64,000 bases of DNA. Origin: Octopus vulgaris (lineage: Eukaryota). The stretch lies in contig OX597823.1 in the NCBI GenBank assembly GCA_951406725.2, positions 24,366,001-24,430,000 of the forward strand. Reading direction: 5' to 3'. Shown piece after piece: positions 6,343 through 23,145 of the stretch. How positions within the stretch are numbered: position 1 is the stretch's first letter; each line of letters starts with the position of its first letter. The notes below the pieces were generated by a model, which worked only from the letters and a program-made list of their open reading frames with translations, made no database searches and was not told the origin of the DNA. A program made the translations under genes and the position numbers.

Positions 6343-6831
6343 TTAAAGGTATTGAGCTGGCACATTAGAACTCATAACATAAAGACCGATGAAATCCATT
6401 CTGAGTTCAAATTCTGCCAGGTTGACCTTGCCTTTCATCCTATTGGGCTTTTGTTTAACATTAAATGACCACAAGGACACTTCACATGCTGGTTGACCAT
6501 TGTTTAAATTATGTTTAGATTCTACAAAAGCACACCATTAGAAAAGGAATGTACAAATGGATTACATGCAACTTAAATCTTGAAACAAGGTTTCAAATGA
6601 GTCTGAGGATGTTCTACATTCACATGAACTCTAAGTTGTCATTTTGTGGATCAATTATTTGTTTATAATAAATTGCCAATCCATGCCAGCATGGAAAACA
6701 GTTATTAAAGAATGATAATGATGATAATGATACTCATTAAAATAAAATTATGCACCAGATACTGTATAAAATTTAATGTGTGTATGAGAGAGTATAAAAT
6801 GTACTTTTTATTTCCTTTCTATTTTTTCTAG

Positions 6832-7065
6832 CCTATGATGATCTTTTCACATTTAAAAAAACTTCTATACCAGAGAAGGATACATTAAAACGGCTGAAGA
6901 ACAAGAGCTTAAAGGACTGTTATAAAGCTTGTTATAAAAATTCAGAATGTCACTCTTTTGAGTATAATAAAAAAGCTAAGTTCTGTGATCAAAGTAATGC
7001 AACCCACTTGACTGATGACCTTCAACCCAATAAAAAGGGTTGGGATACTTACGTCTTTAACCCAG
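6832..7065 (+). CDS. Exon B1: PAN/apple domain type B (YDDLFTFKKTSIPEKDTLKRL...CYKACYKNSECHSFEYNKKAKFCDQS...WDTYVFNP)
   Basis: Polypyrimidine tract and ctag|, donor CAG|gtcagt, 234 nt, open in phase 1. Not in the ORF track in this frame; translated by hand. Confidence 0.9.
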
Positions 7066-8159
7066 GTCAGTAAAATGCTTTCACTTTATTTTTTGAGTGT
7101 GAATATGTATGTATATGTTCATGTGTATTTACATAAAGATATACCTGTTTATAATACACACATGCACATACACATACATATAGTTGTACATCAGTGCAAA
7201 GGGACCCTGTAGCTCATAGTCAACAGCTTGTTAGCATCTCACATACATGAGGCTTGGATAAAACAATCGAAGGAAAAACTAATCAATCAATAAGATTTAT
7301 TAATTTATTTTTATTACATTCACTTCATTCCATAAATAACTTTATGAAGTAATTTTGATAAGATGACAAATTCTGCACAACTTCAGGTTCAGTTGTCACT
7401 TACTTTACACAGTATATGATAAACATATGAATAATAAAAATGAGCTAATCCATTTAAGTACAACATGTTTCTGAAGCTATATTCACACTATAAGTGTAAT
7501 TACGTCATAATATTACTATCAAATAAAATTCTACATTATGTATTGATGTGGAATTGAAGTATATTCTGACACAATTGCACTTATATTTGAATTTTTGTTT
7601 TGCTTTACAAATATGTTGTACTTAACTGCATTTGATCATTATTATTGTTATCGATATGGTATTTCAGCCAGGGGAGTCTGGCAGAGTAAGTATCAAGCTT
7701 AAAAAGGGGTACTTGGTTGTGTTGTTATATGTATTTTGTGCATGTGCACATGACTGTGTGTGTGTATGGATAAATGTGTTTATATATATATATGTACCTA
7801 AACAAACCAACCATCATGTTCAGAATTCTTCTAAGGCTGGGGTCCTATACCATTCATGTGATACACTATTCAGGCTCACAACACATAACAATGCAGCACA
7901 ATTACTTCTCAGCAACAGACCCTGCTCTGTTTAATATTTTTCCTAAAACAAACCAAAGGAAAAAATATTGTAATCTTGAAACGGTGTCTGGACAAATTTC
8001 TTACTAAATAAGTCACCTGTAGCTGGATATATATCATTCAATGCCAACTCCCTAATTGAATTGGCTATGACACCACAAAAGTTAACTTAGAATCAGTTTA
8101 ACTGATTCTATCAGTTGGTGCTATTAAGTTACGCATGTGACAAAAGAGTAATTAATAGA

Positions 8160-16131: not shown

Positions 16132-18322
16132 GTAACTATTCTTAGTATTTTATTTTAAGAATTATCCTCTCCTCTTCTTCAGAAATTTGATTCCATTTGA
16201 ATTGCTTGGAATACTTATGGACAACTATTTCTGTAAAGATATTGAAGGTTCATCTGTAAAAGAAACAAAAAATATTAAGAATTGAAAAAATTCTAAAAAG
16301 ACATTGTCATACAGCATTTGTTCACCTTGAACACTTTTATGCAAGTTTTCAATTGTATATTGTGTGCATGTCAGAAAGGAAATTCCTGTTCTCTTTCTTA
16401 AATACAAATAGTTGTAGTAGTGGTGGTGGCAGTGGTAGAAGCAACAACTGTGGACTTTCTTCACCTCCCCATGTTGACATGGCTTTGACAGTACTGTTAG
16501 AACACAATGTCTCATATCTTGTAGCTGTGCTACATAATCCAATATACAGAATAACAGAAAAAAATAATACCAAGCTATGTAGTTGTGTATTTCCTATATT
16601 TTCTCAAGGATAATGTAGTAAGATACCCTTCCTGTCACCAACCATTATATCACATGAAGAGAGTACATTTTCCCATATTTCTGGAATCAGAGTAGTTATC
16701 TGCAGAGACAAAAGATGATTTTCTGCTTAAAGAACAACACAGCAAACAAAATCACTCAGTGCAGCTCAAGGATTTTGTCCTTTCCTGTTGAAATCCTTCT
16801 TTGCTGAAATCCTGGACATCAGAGGAAATTCACAAGTTTTAGTGATCTCAGTAGTCAAATATTAATGGTTGCCAGGATGTCATTGCTTATGATCAAACTT
16901 TCTGGCTCAAAAATAAAAGGTGGGATCCATTTCTCTGAATATTTATGTGGAACTTTAACTGAGCTGAAGTTGCAGATTTCACTCCAATATTTATTCTTGG
17001 CACTCTCAAGAAGTTCAAGCACATTCCCAGATCAGGTTTATACAGAGGTAAAATTCAAGCAATTTCAATAATATGAACAGCTATGGCATGAAAAGGTTTA
17101 GCAAGAAATGGACATGAATCTTCAGAGAGTTTGATTTAACCATACATTACTACCAATCTATGTTCAACAAAGTGGATATTACCTTAGAATAGAAGTCTGG
17201 TATCAGACAAGTAATATTCTTACAAAAAGTCTGAGGAGGAGAACAGATATCTTCATAGGAATTTGAGCTCCTTCTTCCAAGCTATAATAAAACATTACAA
17301 AAAGAATCTCCAATTCATCCTGAAATAGAGATATTTGTGACAGCATCCAATGCTGGGTTGGGTTTAATAAGAAGTTAGTATAAAAAGAGCATCTTCCACC
17401 TCCACACTCAAAAGATATTTAGAAAGAGGATAATTTGATTCAGTTCATCCTTCAAACTAAATATGTCCATGAATATAACAAGAGAATTTTTGTACTCCAT
17501 TTGACACCATTTCTCAGGCATGCTTAAGTATCAAAAGCTATTTAATGCAAAGTGTTAAGCTTTGTTACTCCTGTCTAGATAACCCAACATGCAGCATTGT
17601 GTGTTATAGCAGGAAAAGCATACACTTATCCAAATTTTATTGCAAATATCTTCTTGTGTCTGTCAAAATCACTCCACATCTCTACTGAAAGAATTCTGGC
17701 TATTTATGACAGTAATCTATAGAACAGCCTTCACTTCACATAGACTCATACCTATTAACTTCAAGAAGAGTTTCAAACAGCAAGCATACTCCTTCAAGTT
17801 CAGGTATAGGAAAAAGTCCACCTCTCTTGTTCTGTTTTATCTGAGGAGTTCAAGAACGGGAATTATTTTCCCATATAACTTCAAGTATACTCACCAAACC
17901 TACTCCCTAATCATGAGGCAATTATTGTTTCTTGGAAAAAAGGAATAGGTAGCAAGTGGTGGAGAGAAAAAAAATAAGTGGGAAAAGACTGAATGATATA
18001 GCATTAAAGAGGATGGAAAGTAAGGGTATACTAGTAAATAATTAAATAGAAAAATAAATAAATAACTGAAATGGTGAAACATATATAGGAACTAAATATT
18101 TATACTGGTTTTTATCTTATTTCCCATTATGCATGCTCTGTATATTATAATTAGTACACTGCTAAGTACAGTGGAAAGAATATCCACTACACTAGAAAGA
18201 TAAATAATAAGGGTAATCTACATGGAGAACTCTAACTGATACAATAGTAGCTATATATATAACTGTACACACAATATAGATAGACAGACACACAGACAGC
18301 AATGTATATATATATATAAATA

Positions 18323-19640
18323 CTAGCAGAGACTACCAGCATTTCCCGTGTTACATACAATTGAAGAATTAGACTTTTCTGTTATATTTTCTGGAATGAA
18401 CTGGAATATCTATGTTTCAAATTTCATCAAAATTGCAGATGAGGGTTATTTCCCTCTTTACACACCCTAAAAAAATTGTAATCGTGTCACATATATCCCA
18501 TACTACTGATTTTTATGTGCATATTCCAAAATTCCAGTCTTATTGAACCTGTTAAAAAGATTTTGCTCCTGAAAAATGGAGTTCAAGGAGCTCTAAAATG
18601 TGAGAGTTAAGGCCCCTGTTGGGGGTGGGCATCTTAATTTCAACCAGAGAAGTTAAACTGTTGAGAATCTTGTTAACTTGGGTTTAATATCTATTGTTTG
18701 AATTTCTTTGAAATAGGAAATATATATTCACTGGGTTTGTAAAAGAGAGCAAAGCTACCGGAAACCAAAAGACGAATGATCACAATAAGTAGTCAGCTAC
18801 CCTACCCTAGTCGTTACCACTCCCAATATAGTATTCCTCACCATCCAGGTGACAGGCACAGCCGTAAGATGCATTGCGAATCTATAGCAATTGGAAGGGC
18901 ATGACCCATCTGAAATAAACATTAACAACTGTGTGACATGAGGGCTAAGGAGAAATGAAAGTGTCACCTCTGGAGTTTGCAAATAACCACTATACTGATA
19001 TGTAACTGGACAGAATAAATTTACGATCTATAAATATCTTTGAATAACCAGTCACTCATCTGGGAAGGCCTTGAAATCAATGTTACCATCTGGGGACTAT
19101 GTGTGACCCTGTGATAATAAAAAAACTGAAAGGAGGTCTGCAATCAAATAACTTTACTCAACACTTAGCAACTGAATCAATGGAGTCAAAGATGCTTCTC
19201 ATTTACTCGACAATTTATGCACTACATTGCAGAAACCACAATGTAAGTGTATGTCAAAGCAAACTGTTACACTGTTGTACCATTGAATTAAAAATAATGC
19301 TCATCTTTTATGCTCGGGTAACCCTACAGCTTCCAAGAGCACAACTGTATTCATTTTTGCTTAGATAAAATGACAAAATTGTGGGTATTAAGTCCCCATG
19401 GAGGGGTCTTTCTAAGTTGTAAGATGATGAAATTTTATAAATATTACTTCATTTGTGTCTAAATTTTATGGTTAAAATTTTATCAAGAGCAAAAATATAT
19501 GAGTTGTCATGGGGGTTATGGCACTTATGCATAGAATATAATTTCCAAATTTCATAAAGATCGATTCAGTACTTTTGACCTAGTTTTGGATCATAAAAGA
19601 AATGACTAAAATTGGGTGTTAAGGCCCCCATAAGAGTGTT
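18323..19640 (-). mobile_element. Probable non-autonomous Helitron
   Basis: Reverse-strand 3' end ...cacgggaaatgctggtagtctctgCTAG|T at 18323, inserted next to a TA run; internal aaatttcat and ttaaggcccc repeats. 5' end uncertain. Confidence 0.5.
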
Positions 19641-19664
19641 ATATATATATTTTTATATATATAT

Positions 19665-22084
19665 ATAAATAATAATAAATATTAGGGAATAAATCCAAAT
19701 TTACAGGGAAAAAATCAGATTTAGGATTAAATCCAATTTTATAGTAAAATATTATATAATATTAATTAGAGACAAAACCACTATTTTGCAAAACAAACAA
19801 GGGAAGACTTAATCAATACATAACATTTTAATAAAAAGTAAAAAAACCGCCACTACAATTGTTTCATGTCTTGATCGACAATCTTCAGGTGGATTTCCGA
19901 TCTAAAATATCAATATTTTAAAATATAAGTATAAAAAATAATTTTAAAATAATTAAAGTATCAATGAAAAAATATAAATATATAATCTATATATAACCTA
20001 TATATAATCCATATATAAACTAAATATATATAAACTAAAATAAACCTATCAACAATTAAATATAAAACAAAATAAAAATAAACTATATATACACCCATAC
20101 ACATATAACTAATTATATATAACCATATCTAAATACATACACTAACTCACACACCTATATATATATCCCTATACATACACATAAAAACGTCTAGGCAACG
20201 ATAAATAAATAAAATAGCCAAATACTTCAACACAATACTTATTCATACTCCCTCACACACACATACAACCCACATTCATAAACAATATACGTATACCCGC
20301 TCACACATACATATACAAACATACAGAACTCGATATATACACCAATATATTCACACCCACATCTATACAGATAAATAAATTACGCAAATAATCCCCCCCC
20401 ACACACACACACACATTCACACATACATAAACACTCAAAAGCAAAATAAACAATTCTTTGCACGTGGTGATCGAAGGTTTTTTTAAAAAAATTATGAATG
20501 GAATAATATATAATCAACTTAAATATACAGAATCTACTACAAAACACCAATAAACCATCATGATAAATGAAACCCACATACATATAATGATAAAACTCCC
20601 CCTACCATACACAATTACACCTATATAGCAATCCCATATACACATTCACACACAAATATACATACGTAAAACACACACACACAACATATACGTATACCCC
20701 CTCACATATACATATACATACTTACTAAACTCGATATATACAACAATATTTTCACACCCACACTCATACAGATAAATAAATTACACAACTAAAATACGCA
20801 CACACACACACATTCACACATACATAAACACTCAAAAGGAAACCAACATTACTACACATAATACAATATATAAAATACTTCATAATTAACCAGAATATCA
20901 TAAGTAACAAGATTAACATAAGGAGAAAAAATATACATACTTTCAAGTCAGTTTCAAATTATGAAGTGAAATTAAACTCTAGCCGTTAAAAACGTCAAAC
21001 AAAATTACGTTACCATAGGAACTTAACATATGTATAAAAAGTATTCGCGCTCTGGAAACGAACGTCATTTAAAATTATGAATGGAGAAATGGAATAAATG
21101 GAATTAAAAATTATATTCACGTGGTAAACGAACATTACTTAAAAATTATGAATGGAATAATGTAATAAAATAACAAACATCATAAATAGACATAAATTAC
21201 TACGAATTCTTTAATAAAACTACCATGATAAACTAAAACTCATAAATACATATAATGATAAAACCTCCCTTTACTAAACTCTATAACATACCTATATAGC
21301 AATCCCCCTAACCTATACATTCACATACAAATACACACACGTAAACCACACACCCACGACATATACAAATACCCACCTCACTCACACATACCTATACATA
21401 CGTATAAACCTCAATATATACACCAAAAACCCACTCCCACCCCACACAGACAAATAAACACATACATCCCCAAAAATGGGCGCAATCCCACGCACACCAA
21501 TCATGCATGTATACAATTGCACACACAAGAACAATACATAATCAACCCAAATATACAGAACCTACCACAAATCACCAACAAACCACCATGACAAATGAAA
21601 CCCACACACATACAATGACAAAACTCCCCCCACCATACACAATTATACCCACATAGCAATCTCCATATATACATCCACACACAAACACACATACGCAAAA
21701 CACACACACACAACACATACGTACACCCCCCTACATACCCATATACATACGTACCAAACCCGACATACACAACAATACGCTCACCCCCTACCATACACAA
21801 TTACACCTATATAGCAATCCCATATACACATTCACACACAAATATACATACGTAAAACACACACACACAACATATACGTATACCCCCTCACATATACATA
21901 TACATACTTACTAAACTCGATATATACAACTATATTTTCACACCCACACTCATACAGATAAATAAATTACACAACTAAAATACGCACACACACACACATT
22001 CACACATACATAAACACTCAAAAGAAAAACAACATTACTACACATAATACGATATATAAAATACTTCATAAGTAACCAGAATAT
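19665..22084 (-). mobile_element. Non-coding hammerhead-bearing (Penelope-like/retrozyme-like) element with internal ~300-bp CA-rich repeats, flanked by (TA)n
   Basis: Terminus homologous to 60022-60190. Hammerhead at 19850-19892(-). 20599-20898 is nearly identical to 21785-22084. Strong G depletion on + strand. Confidence 0.65.
19850..19892 (-). ncRNA. Minimal type I hammerhead ribozyme
   Basis: Minus strand reads CCAC CUGAAGA u UGUC gaucaa GACA u GAAA C AAUU G UA GUGG: intact core boxes, 4-bp stem I, 4-bp stem II, short stem III with palindromic CAAUUG, GUA cleavage triplet. This is the architecture described for Penelope-like-element minimal hammerheads. Confidence 0.8.
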
Positions 22085-22121
22085 ATGTATTTATATATAT
22101 ATATGTATTTATATATATATA

Positions 22122-22152
<31 letters not shown>

Positions 22153-22179
22153 ATAGATATAGATATATATACACCCACA

Positions 22180-23145
22180 CACATACAAAGATGAATTGAT
22201 AGATATAACTGACTGGGCAAACAAAAATATGAGACACTGCCTAGTGTTTTTTTTTATGTTGATAAGCCTGGTACTTATTCTATTAGTCTGTTCTTGTGAA
22301 ACCAGTAAGTTATGGGGATGTAAATAAATGAACAGTAGTTGTGAAACAGTGATGAGGGTGAAACACATAGACAATTGATTTCAGTTCCTGTCTAAGAAAT
22401 CCATATACATATATATGGATTTCTTAGACAGGAACTGAAACAAATCAATCATATTTATATGTATGTATATATGTAAGTGTATGTGTGTGTTTTTGTCTCT
22501 GTGTTTCATCCTCATCACTGCTTCACAACTGCTGTTCATTTATTTACATCCCCATAACTTACTGGTTTCACCAGAACAAACTAATAGAATAAGTACCAGG
22601 CTTATCAACATAAATATATATATATATATCGTTTAGCATTCGCTTTCCATGCTAGCATGGGTTGGACGGTTCAACTGGGGTCTGGGATGCCAGAAGGCTG
22701 CACCAGGCCCAGTCTTATCTGGCAATGTTTCTACGGCTGGATGCCCTTTGTATACACACACACGCACACACACAGAGACAAATTGATAGATACAACTGAG
22801 TGGGCAAAAAACAAAATATGAGACACTGCCTAGTGGGTTTTTTTATTTTGATAAGCCTTGTACTTATTCTTTCAGTTTCTTCTAGTGAAACAAGTAAGTT
22901 ATGGGGATGTAAATAAATGAACACCAGTTGTGAAGCAGTGATGAGGGAGAAACACAAAGACATACACATATACATAGATACATACATATATATACAATTG
23001 ATTTCTTTCAGTTTCTGTCTTCAAAATCCACTGACAAGGCTTTGGTTGGTCTGAGGCTATAGCAGAAGATGCATGCCAAGTTACCACACACTGGAACTGA
23101 AACATGTGTTTTGGAACCAAGTTTGTTACCACACAGCCACACCTG
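22180..23145. repeat. Direct-inverted-direct triplication of a SINE-containing segment, with a perfect hairpin at 22379-22440
   Basis: 22180-22400 matches 22765-23030 (direct, including flank aaatatgagacactgcctagtg). 22255-22405 is the reverse complement of 22415-22615. Confidence 0.8.

Follow-up and report, generated by a model that had tools for sequence, protein, structure and literature searches.

Strand-biased A-to-G changes in a fold-back hairpin of an octopus Penelope-like retroelement, probably inherited from ADAR-hyperedited RNA

The window analysed in our study is a stretch of 64,000 nucleotides from Octopus vulgaris (contig OX597823.1, positions 24,366,001 to 24,430,000 of the forward strand), and one of its repeats raises the question of how a short tract of genomic DNA could have acquired many changes of a single kind and direction. 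A preliminary description of this tract (21529-21784, minus strand) had counted about 29 T>C differences on the plus strand against about 3 C>T, about 4 transversions and 1 indel in comparison to the paralog at 20501-20755, and had proposed that a hyperedited transcript was reverse transcribed and integrated. The alignment returned the same tally exactly (29 T>C, 3 C>T, 2 T>G, 1 A>T, 1 A>C and 1 gap column in 255 aligned columns), and the bias of 29 T>C to 3 C>T is beyond chance (binomial p=2.6e-6). In comparison to the majority of seven hairpin-free elements of the family, 35 of the 69 T positions are C in the tract, which otherwise differs by 1 C>T and 1 A>C. The changed segment also extends leftwards with 11 further T>C in 21430-21522, giving a total of 46 T>C and 4 other changes in 21430-21780, whereas no T>C was found among 86 T in the adjoining 354 columns of the window copy (21047-21400, minus strand), which comprise the leader and unit B, lie outside the stem described below and serve as an internal negative control. 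Copies of the tract with 97-99% identity are present on C13, C17, C2 and C4 of the searched 2.8-Gb assembly.

The tract belongs to what is read here as the 5'-truncated 3' portion of a Hydra-type Penelope-like retroelement (PLE) at 19669-22084 on the minus strand, delimited by (TA)n tracts and by colinearity with the C13 copy (98% over window positions 19640-22084; locus L024). The (TA)n-rich target tract at the element 3' end occupies 19640-19668, and a second (TA)n tract at 22081-22160 marks the 5' truncation point. Between them, on the minus strand, lie a minimal type I hammerhead-like motif (19850-19892), unit E (20257-20445), an older paralogue used as outgroup for polarity, and unit P (20501-20830), the paralog of the preliminary description. 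These are followed by the leader and unit B, by arm F (21397-21784), which stops about 60 nt short of the loop and would form the 3' arm of the hairpin on RNA, and by the start of a 1.19-kb tandem duplication (21785-22084), which repeats 20596 onwards and ends at the 5' truncation point. The join at 21785 had been taken as an event of this copy itself, but the same junction is found in the copies on C13 and C17, and it is best read as a 1.19-kb tandem duplication inherited from a master element. Outside the element, window positions 18310-19640 hold a different repeat which abuts the PLE 3' end; its left end follows TA repeats and presumably resembles the ends of Helitron-associated elements. 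On the other side, 22164-22614 and 22751-22962 belong to another interspersed repeat with direct and inverted copies, and a near-perfect palindrome of about 70 bp (~22377-22446) and a hammerhead-like TGATGAG...GAAA motif (~22350) are also seen there.

The hammerhead on the minus strand had been described as intact. Its motifs are recognisable at 19850-19892 (CUGANGA, GAAA and GUA boxes, 4-bp stems I and II and a 2-bp stem III), and of 53 pattern matches, chosen by likeness and possibly counting overlapping loci twice, 53, 53 and 52 retain the three boxes. The named structure pairs at -4.5 kcal/mol; the minimum free energy fold of the region gave a different structure and did not return the hammerhead, and Rfam searches gave no match to it.

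Beyond the break point of the window copy, longer copies continue into an ORF on the strand matching the window minus strand and into a partner arm I, both of which are absent from the window copy. An open frame of 841 amino acids (L045:2321-4846) reads, by its motifs, as a reverse transcriptase (RT) followed by a C-terminal GIY-YIG-type endonuclease (EN), with no N-terminal EN. It carries SDKT, CTCRDKSNC, CYLC and CRH motifs and no CCHH motif, and RIKWK stands at the expected N-terminal place as an inexact match to the RWK motif. A Pfam search of this ORF gave no significant family, and the assignment rests on motifs. An asparagine-rich low-complexity stretch lies between its RT and GIY-YIG-type domains, and PLEs of this family can easily be missed in annotation, as Pfam does not recognise the ORF. 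According to the available text of Craig et al. (PMC8557442), Hydra-clade PLEs have a single ORF with RT and C-terminal GIY-YIG-type EN, DKT, CxCX5C, CxxC and CxH motifs, a hammerhead, (TA)n targets, and tandem and inverted copies. The ORF order, the DKT and Cys motifs, the motif-level hammerhead, the (TA)n flanks and the tandem and inverted copies are common to the octopus family, and from this motif comparison the element is a Hydra-type PLE with the window minus strand as its sense strand. The octopus family differs from the described Hydra-clade PLEs in having a repeated 3' region of about 4 kb with an internal hyper-mutated hairpin, and editing is not mentioned in the available part of that paper. 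A Naiad PLE was ruled out by the C-terminal EN, the DKT (not DKA) motif and the presence of the hammerhead. A mitochondrial control region origin, prompted by the strand skew, was dropped once the PLE ORF was found. Since the ORF and the hammerhead-like motif lie on the minus strand in the family, the window copy is 5'-truncated and its minus strand is the sense strand, as the preliminary description had presumed; the T>C changes on the plus strand are therefore A>G on the sense strand.

The longer copies also reveal what the truncated copy has lost. In these, the tract leads into a loop, beyond which it is repeated in inverted orientation (arm F at 6639-7076 and arm I at 7077-7512 of the C17 copy, L033), forming a stem of about 435 bp in the 3' region of the PLE; hairpin-free and hairpin-bearing elements occur side by side in the family. 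The two arms of the C17 copy differ over 432 columns by 110 A(F)/G(I) and 59 C(F)/T(I) mismatches, with 1 of the opposite kind and 9 transversions. The corresponding A/G, C/T and opposite-kind counts are 110, 61 and 1 in C2b and 108, 55 and 0 in C13, these three loci being taken out of five, with C10b and C2a excluded by a motif-based cut. Both the A/G and the C/T mismatches become G.U pairs on the sense RNA, which is predicted to fold arm to arm with 420 pairs, 166 of them G.U, at -577 kcal/mol, whereas in the predicted fold of the antisense (97 pairs, -212 kcal/mol) the arms are not paired. Contigs of four runs (four studies, three organism labels) were aligned to L033 6300-7800; three of them cover 30/30 bins and one covers 28, and one contig crosses the hairpin loop (6993-7363, 10 differences), this support coming from contigs rather than raw reads, of runs none of which is recorded as RNA, and applying to the C17 copy, not the window copy. 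A 141-bp deletion, which shortens the stem, is seen in most arm-I copies (L121 6476-6698; joint 7299-7441); it is already present in some unflipped copies and in all the flipped copies seen.

Comparison with the hairpin-free majority places the changes on both arms. Arm F (majority of five copies) shows 52 T>C of 105 T, 1 A>G and 5 other changes, and arm I shows 111 A>G of 196 A, no T>C and 9 others; read on the sense strand, the two arms together carry 163 A>G against 15 other changes. The ORF and the neighbouring parts behave differently: one hairpin-free and one hairpin-bearing element differ at 12 of 1,530 ORF bases, only one of these being A>G, variant sites across ten ORF copies show no bias (10 A>G against 9 T>C), and those adjacent to the hammerhead in 49 sequences count 14 A>G and 18 T>C. 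Very probably, then, the sense-strand A>G changes of both arms were made by ADAR on double-stranded RNA and fixed by the element's own reverse transcription, the enzyme being inferred from the sequence pattern. The dense sense-strand A>G, their confinement to both strands of a duplex and the pooled 5' context are those of hyper-editing, the exception being the 5' context of arm F. The mirror change in the partner arm, the stop at the stem edge and the second round in a flipped subfamily (see below) support the core of the earlier proposal; its further idea that the window copy derives directly from newly edited RNA gives way to inheritance of the tract from an amplified master.

The course of events may be pictured as follows. 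This family often makes inverted copies at insertion, and one such inversion would have become internal to a transcribed and active element, so that its RNA formed a near-perfect stem of about 435 bp. ADAR would then have deaminated about 50-57% of the A's on both stem strands. Inosine is reverse transcribed as G, and the PLE RT would have read it so; the resulting copy, integrated in the germline, would have become a master, which may later have gained the 1.19-kb tandem duplication with its junction at 21785. The edited sequence was amplified, arm I being found at 40 scored loci among 110 candidates, which is a lower bound (at least 40 loci), and the window copy would be a truncated daughter that has kept only arm F.

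The changes in the hairpin were apparently not the last. In one subfamily the segment comprising F, I and leader is flipped relative to the ORF, and an unrooted ORF tree (10 sequences, few variable sites) places the flipped copies as one clade beside an unflipped hairpin copy (support 0.987 and 0.936). The flip creates new predicted duplexes, and the changes fall in the segments that pair in the prediction. In the leader that has become inverted, each copy shows 33-49 A>G among about 106 A and 0-1 T>C; over 23 copies this amounts to 989 A>G against 4 T>C cells in 21 patterns. All copies have 13 of these sites in common, and 76 sites are changed when the copies are taken together. The upstream leaders in the flipped loci show 364 T>C against 25 A>G cells. 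An 'other' comparison group for the upstream leader, with 100 T>C against 42 A>G cells, blurs the contrast, and these counts are probably due to misassigned flipped loci. Arm F of the flipped copies, bearing T>C from the first event, gains A>G patches. Among 17 informative flipped copies, the arm-F patch and G's in the complementary P segment occur together in 11 and are both absent from 6; the 11 copies reflect few events, not 11. Three of the G's in the P segment are the same as in arm F, from which they could have been acquired by gene conversion. In all the rounds the changes are A>G on the sense strand, though the direction is opposite relative to the repeat unit. The site thresholds for the second round (>=10% of copies; >=2 copies) were hand-chosen, and related copies are not independent events. 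Rare variants in 18 of 28 flipped copies, counted with masking, gave 42 A>G against 15 T>C summed over bins along with many other changes, numbers too small to establish a freshly edited RNA as the source of every insertion.

The many different patterns of new sense-strand A>G in the flipped subfamily point to repeated rounds of editing and retrotransposition, in which the newly formed duplexes would have been edited in turn. It appears rather likely that ADAR acts in this family as a recurrent germline mutagen: inverted copies would give hairpins, the hairpins would be hyper-edited and the edited RNA would found subfamilies, each new duplex opening a new heritable round. The 3' region would then be a layered and datable record of A-to-I editing of single molecules, and the editing itself may help to evade dsRNA surveillance.

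The neighbour context of the changed sites bears on the enzyme. The preliminary description had offered the 5' U as an ADAR signal, with the caveat that TpA is common here and the context needs a test, and the caveat was justified: within the tract alone, 21 of 42 sites with 5' U on the minus strand are changed against 8 of 17 others (p=1.0). The ADAR-like bias instead emerges from the partner arm and the later rounds. By 5' neighbour, the edited fraction of A's in arm I is 47/67 for U, 34/56 for A, 28/62 for C and 1/8 for G; in arm F it is 32/64, 10/12, 2/9 and 8/19 in the same order, the last value showing no depletion of 5' G in this arm. The flipped leader gives 22/31, 34/55, 8/12 and 0/9, and the upstream leader 16/28, 7/13, 2/11 and 1/6. 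Pooled, the values are U 117/190 (62%), A 85/136 (62%), C 40/94 (43%) and G 10/42 (24%) (chi-square p=2.6e-6; G against the rest p=3e-5), and as far as sequence counts can tell this context is ADAR-like, with U=A>C>G. For the first event alone, U/A against C/G gave p=5e-4 and G against the rest p=0.025. For 3' G the value is 20/30, which is not significant (p=0.19), and the other 3' neighbour counts of the first event are A 47/68 and U 65/140, given here as counts. In arm I the 10 A's closest to the loop are all spared, as are the last 7 at the other end of the stem in arm F; ADAR is known to spare A's near the 3' ends of duplex strands. The depletion of 5' G at edited A's described for hyper-editing in the available text of PMC5625713 is matched by the pooled data. 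Matches to the A_deamin domain were found at four loci of the assembly (C6:132220394-132222819, C5:47612985-47629530, C1:137351422-137357997 and C30:5583407-5586233), which read at the level of the ADAR/ADAD/ADAT family, the C6 locus being in two long exons.

The same strand and direction would also be expected without any deaminase if the PLE RT itself misread template A as G, because dNTP pools were biased or the enzyme paused in structured RNA. Hypermutation by RTs does occur when dNTP pools are biased, and this account needs only the RT step. It is nevertheless improbable, since the changes are confined with sharp edges to duplex-forming segments while the A-rich ORF and the flanking units are clean, and since the pooled data show the 5'-G depletion and the U/A preference.

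Editing by ADAR further demands that A and T be the older states. At all 109 A/G sites and at 52 of 56 C/T sites, the hairpin-free reference agrees with the unchanged state. At arm-I sites, deeper paralogues carry A 57 and G 1 of 66 (unit B) and A 25 and G 1 of 32 (unit E); at arm-F sites, they carry T 25 and C 5 of 35 (unit B) and T 13 and C 1 of 16 (unit E). Because the hairpin-free elements and both deeper paralogues agree, A/T is taken from these comparisons as the ancestral state at the arm sites, and T>C as the derived direction, which had been argued from nearby copies, is upheld. The closest unflipped relatives of the flipped leader likewise have A at the changed sites. Very little room is thus left for the reverse polarity, in which a GC-richer ancestor suffered C>T on one strand (CpA/CpG decay, or an APOBEC- or RIP-like process), F and I being ancestral and P doubly decayed. 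The mismatches between F and I carry no polarity by themselves, the unit is G-poor on the plus strand and most of the sites lie in a TpA/CpA context, all of which would suit such decay; however, it is opposed by the A/T at nearly all sites in the hairpin-free elements and the two deeper paralogous units, by the A's in the relatives of the flipped leader and by ORFs only 0.8% apart. In addition, the vertebrate-type APOBEC signal was absent in 19 invertebrate genomes, a result for LTR elements only in the part of PMC4866542 consulted.

The paralog at 20501-20810, taken earlier as an unedited comparison copy, is nearly so. It carries 8 T>C in comparison to the hairpin-free elements, and 21785-21995 carries 4, mostly shared with arm F in both cases. 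The 8 T>C of unit P are absent from arm I and are left unexplained by a single editing event; the pattern suggests an earlier light round or conversion in the P-type copies.

Gradual drift that keeps the hairpin paired, with A-U to G.U changes tolerated on the sense strand, would agree with the finding that the sense RNA is still predicted to fold arm to arm (420 pairs, -577 kcal/mol) and the antisense is not. It is hardly credible, since G-C to G.U changes (C>U) would be expected at a similar rate and only 5 were counted against 163 A>G, and since 163 changes in about 870 nt are far too fast beside the 0.8% ORF divergence. DNA-level palindrome mutagenesis or an assembly or sequencing artefact can be given next to no weight: an appearance of strand-biased mismatches can arise where (TA)n and (TG)n microsatellites are paired, but the tract recurs at 97-99% identity on other chromosomes, the hairpin is present in the independent-run contigs, and the palindromes made by insertion in the same family (e.g. 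of 2,724, 2,034, 2,811, 1,484 and 703 bp; arms 93-99.9% identical) have mixed mismatches with no strand bias, so that a DNA palindrome alone is insufficient.

The origin preferred here, ADAR editing followed by reverse transcription, has partial precedents. The available part of a review (PMC12925331, on Hajjar & Linial 1995 and Felder et al. 1994) covers avian retroviruses in which A>G changes attributed to ADAR reach nearly 50% in U3 and in an inverted repeat. The likeness is that about half of the A's in an inverted repeat of a retro-element have become G; those cases, as given there, are single exogenous isolates, whereas here the element is an endogenous non-viral PLE in which the changes are germline-fixed, spread to at least 40 loci and apparently renewed. 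APOBEC DNA editing is likewise described as leaving scars in genomic LTR retrotransposons (Knisbacher & Levanon, PMC4866542; Zaranek et al., PMC2873906; both as far as available), and these resemble the octopus case as a clustered, strand-biased mark of a host deaminase in retroelement copies. They differ in being sense G>A changes made via single-stranded cDNA and reported absent from invertebrates (PMC4866542), whereas the octopus changes are sense A>G, duplex-confined and present in both arms. APOBEC-type editing of this locus was rejected as the sense-strand changes are A>G and not G>A, with polarity from the outgroups. In the available text of Porath et al. (PMC5625713), hyper-editing appears as A>G changes crowded together in long inverted repeats, octopus giving one of the two highest signals; there the changes are in RNA reads and not inherited, and here they are in genomic DNA. 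The available parts of PMC5974252 and of a retrozyme preprint (10.64898/2026.07.22.740005) make no mention of edited copies returning to the genome, and a full-text literature search, with subscription journals and supplements outside its scope, gave no paper describing an endogenous element in which ADAR scars have been fixed, amplified and then renewed.

A-to-I editing is usually taken as non-heritable, and here it has apparently been written into the germline, amplified and repeated, which would place beside the known APOBEC scars a counterpart made by ADAR, in the genome of an animal. If this holds, retroelement RNA is edited by ADAR in germline cells and can still retrotranspose after hyper-editing. 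Editing would then swap about half of the A's of a segment while the ORF changes by less than 1%, and this PLE family would offer a natural test case for the question whether dsRNA-forming transposons are restricted or licensed by editing. Moreover, assemblies could be screened without RNA data, via inverted repeats in which all the mismatches are G.U on the sense strand.

Strand-biased inverted repeats were also looked for in the window and in 36 large loci. Of 286 alignments, 57 were flagged, 48 of them within the PLE family and 9 outside, and no flagged alignment lies in the window. Four of the nine outside the family were inspected and all were TA/TG microsatellite artefacts; (TA)n paired with (TG)n/(CA)n mimics the G.U bias at L038 7842-8123, L042 1883-2068, L050 100-296 and L121 37-135, and genome-wide G.U-asymmetry screens must mask such microsatellites. 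Insertion has also produced large inverted duplications that are nearly perfect and have arms of up to 2.8 kb (L047 108-9537, L116 991-6726, L111 2100-4127, and L037 4860 to L038 603); if transcribed, these would be new dsRNA substrates.
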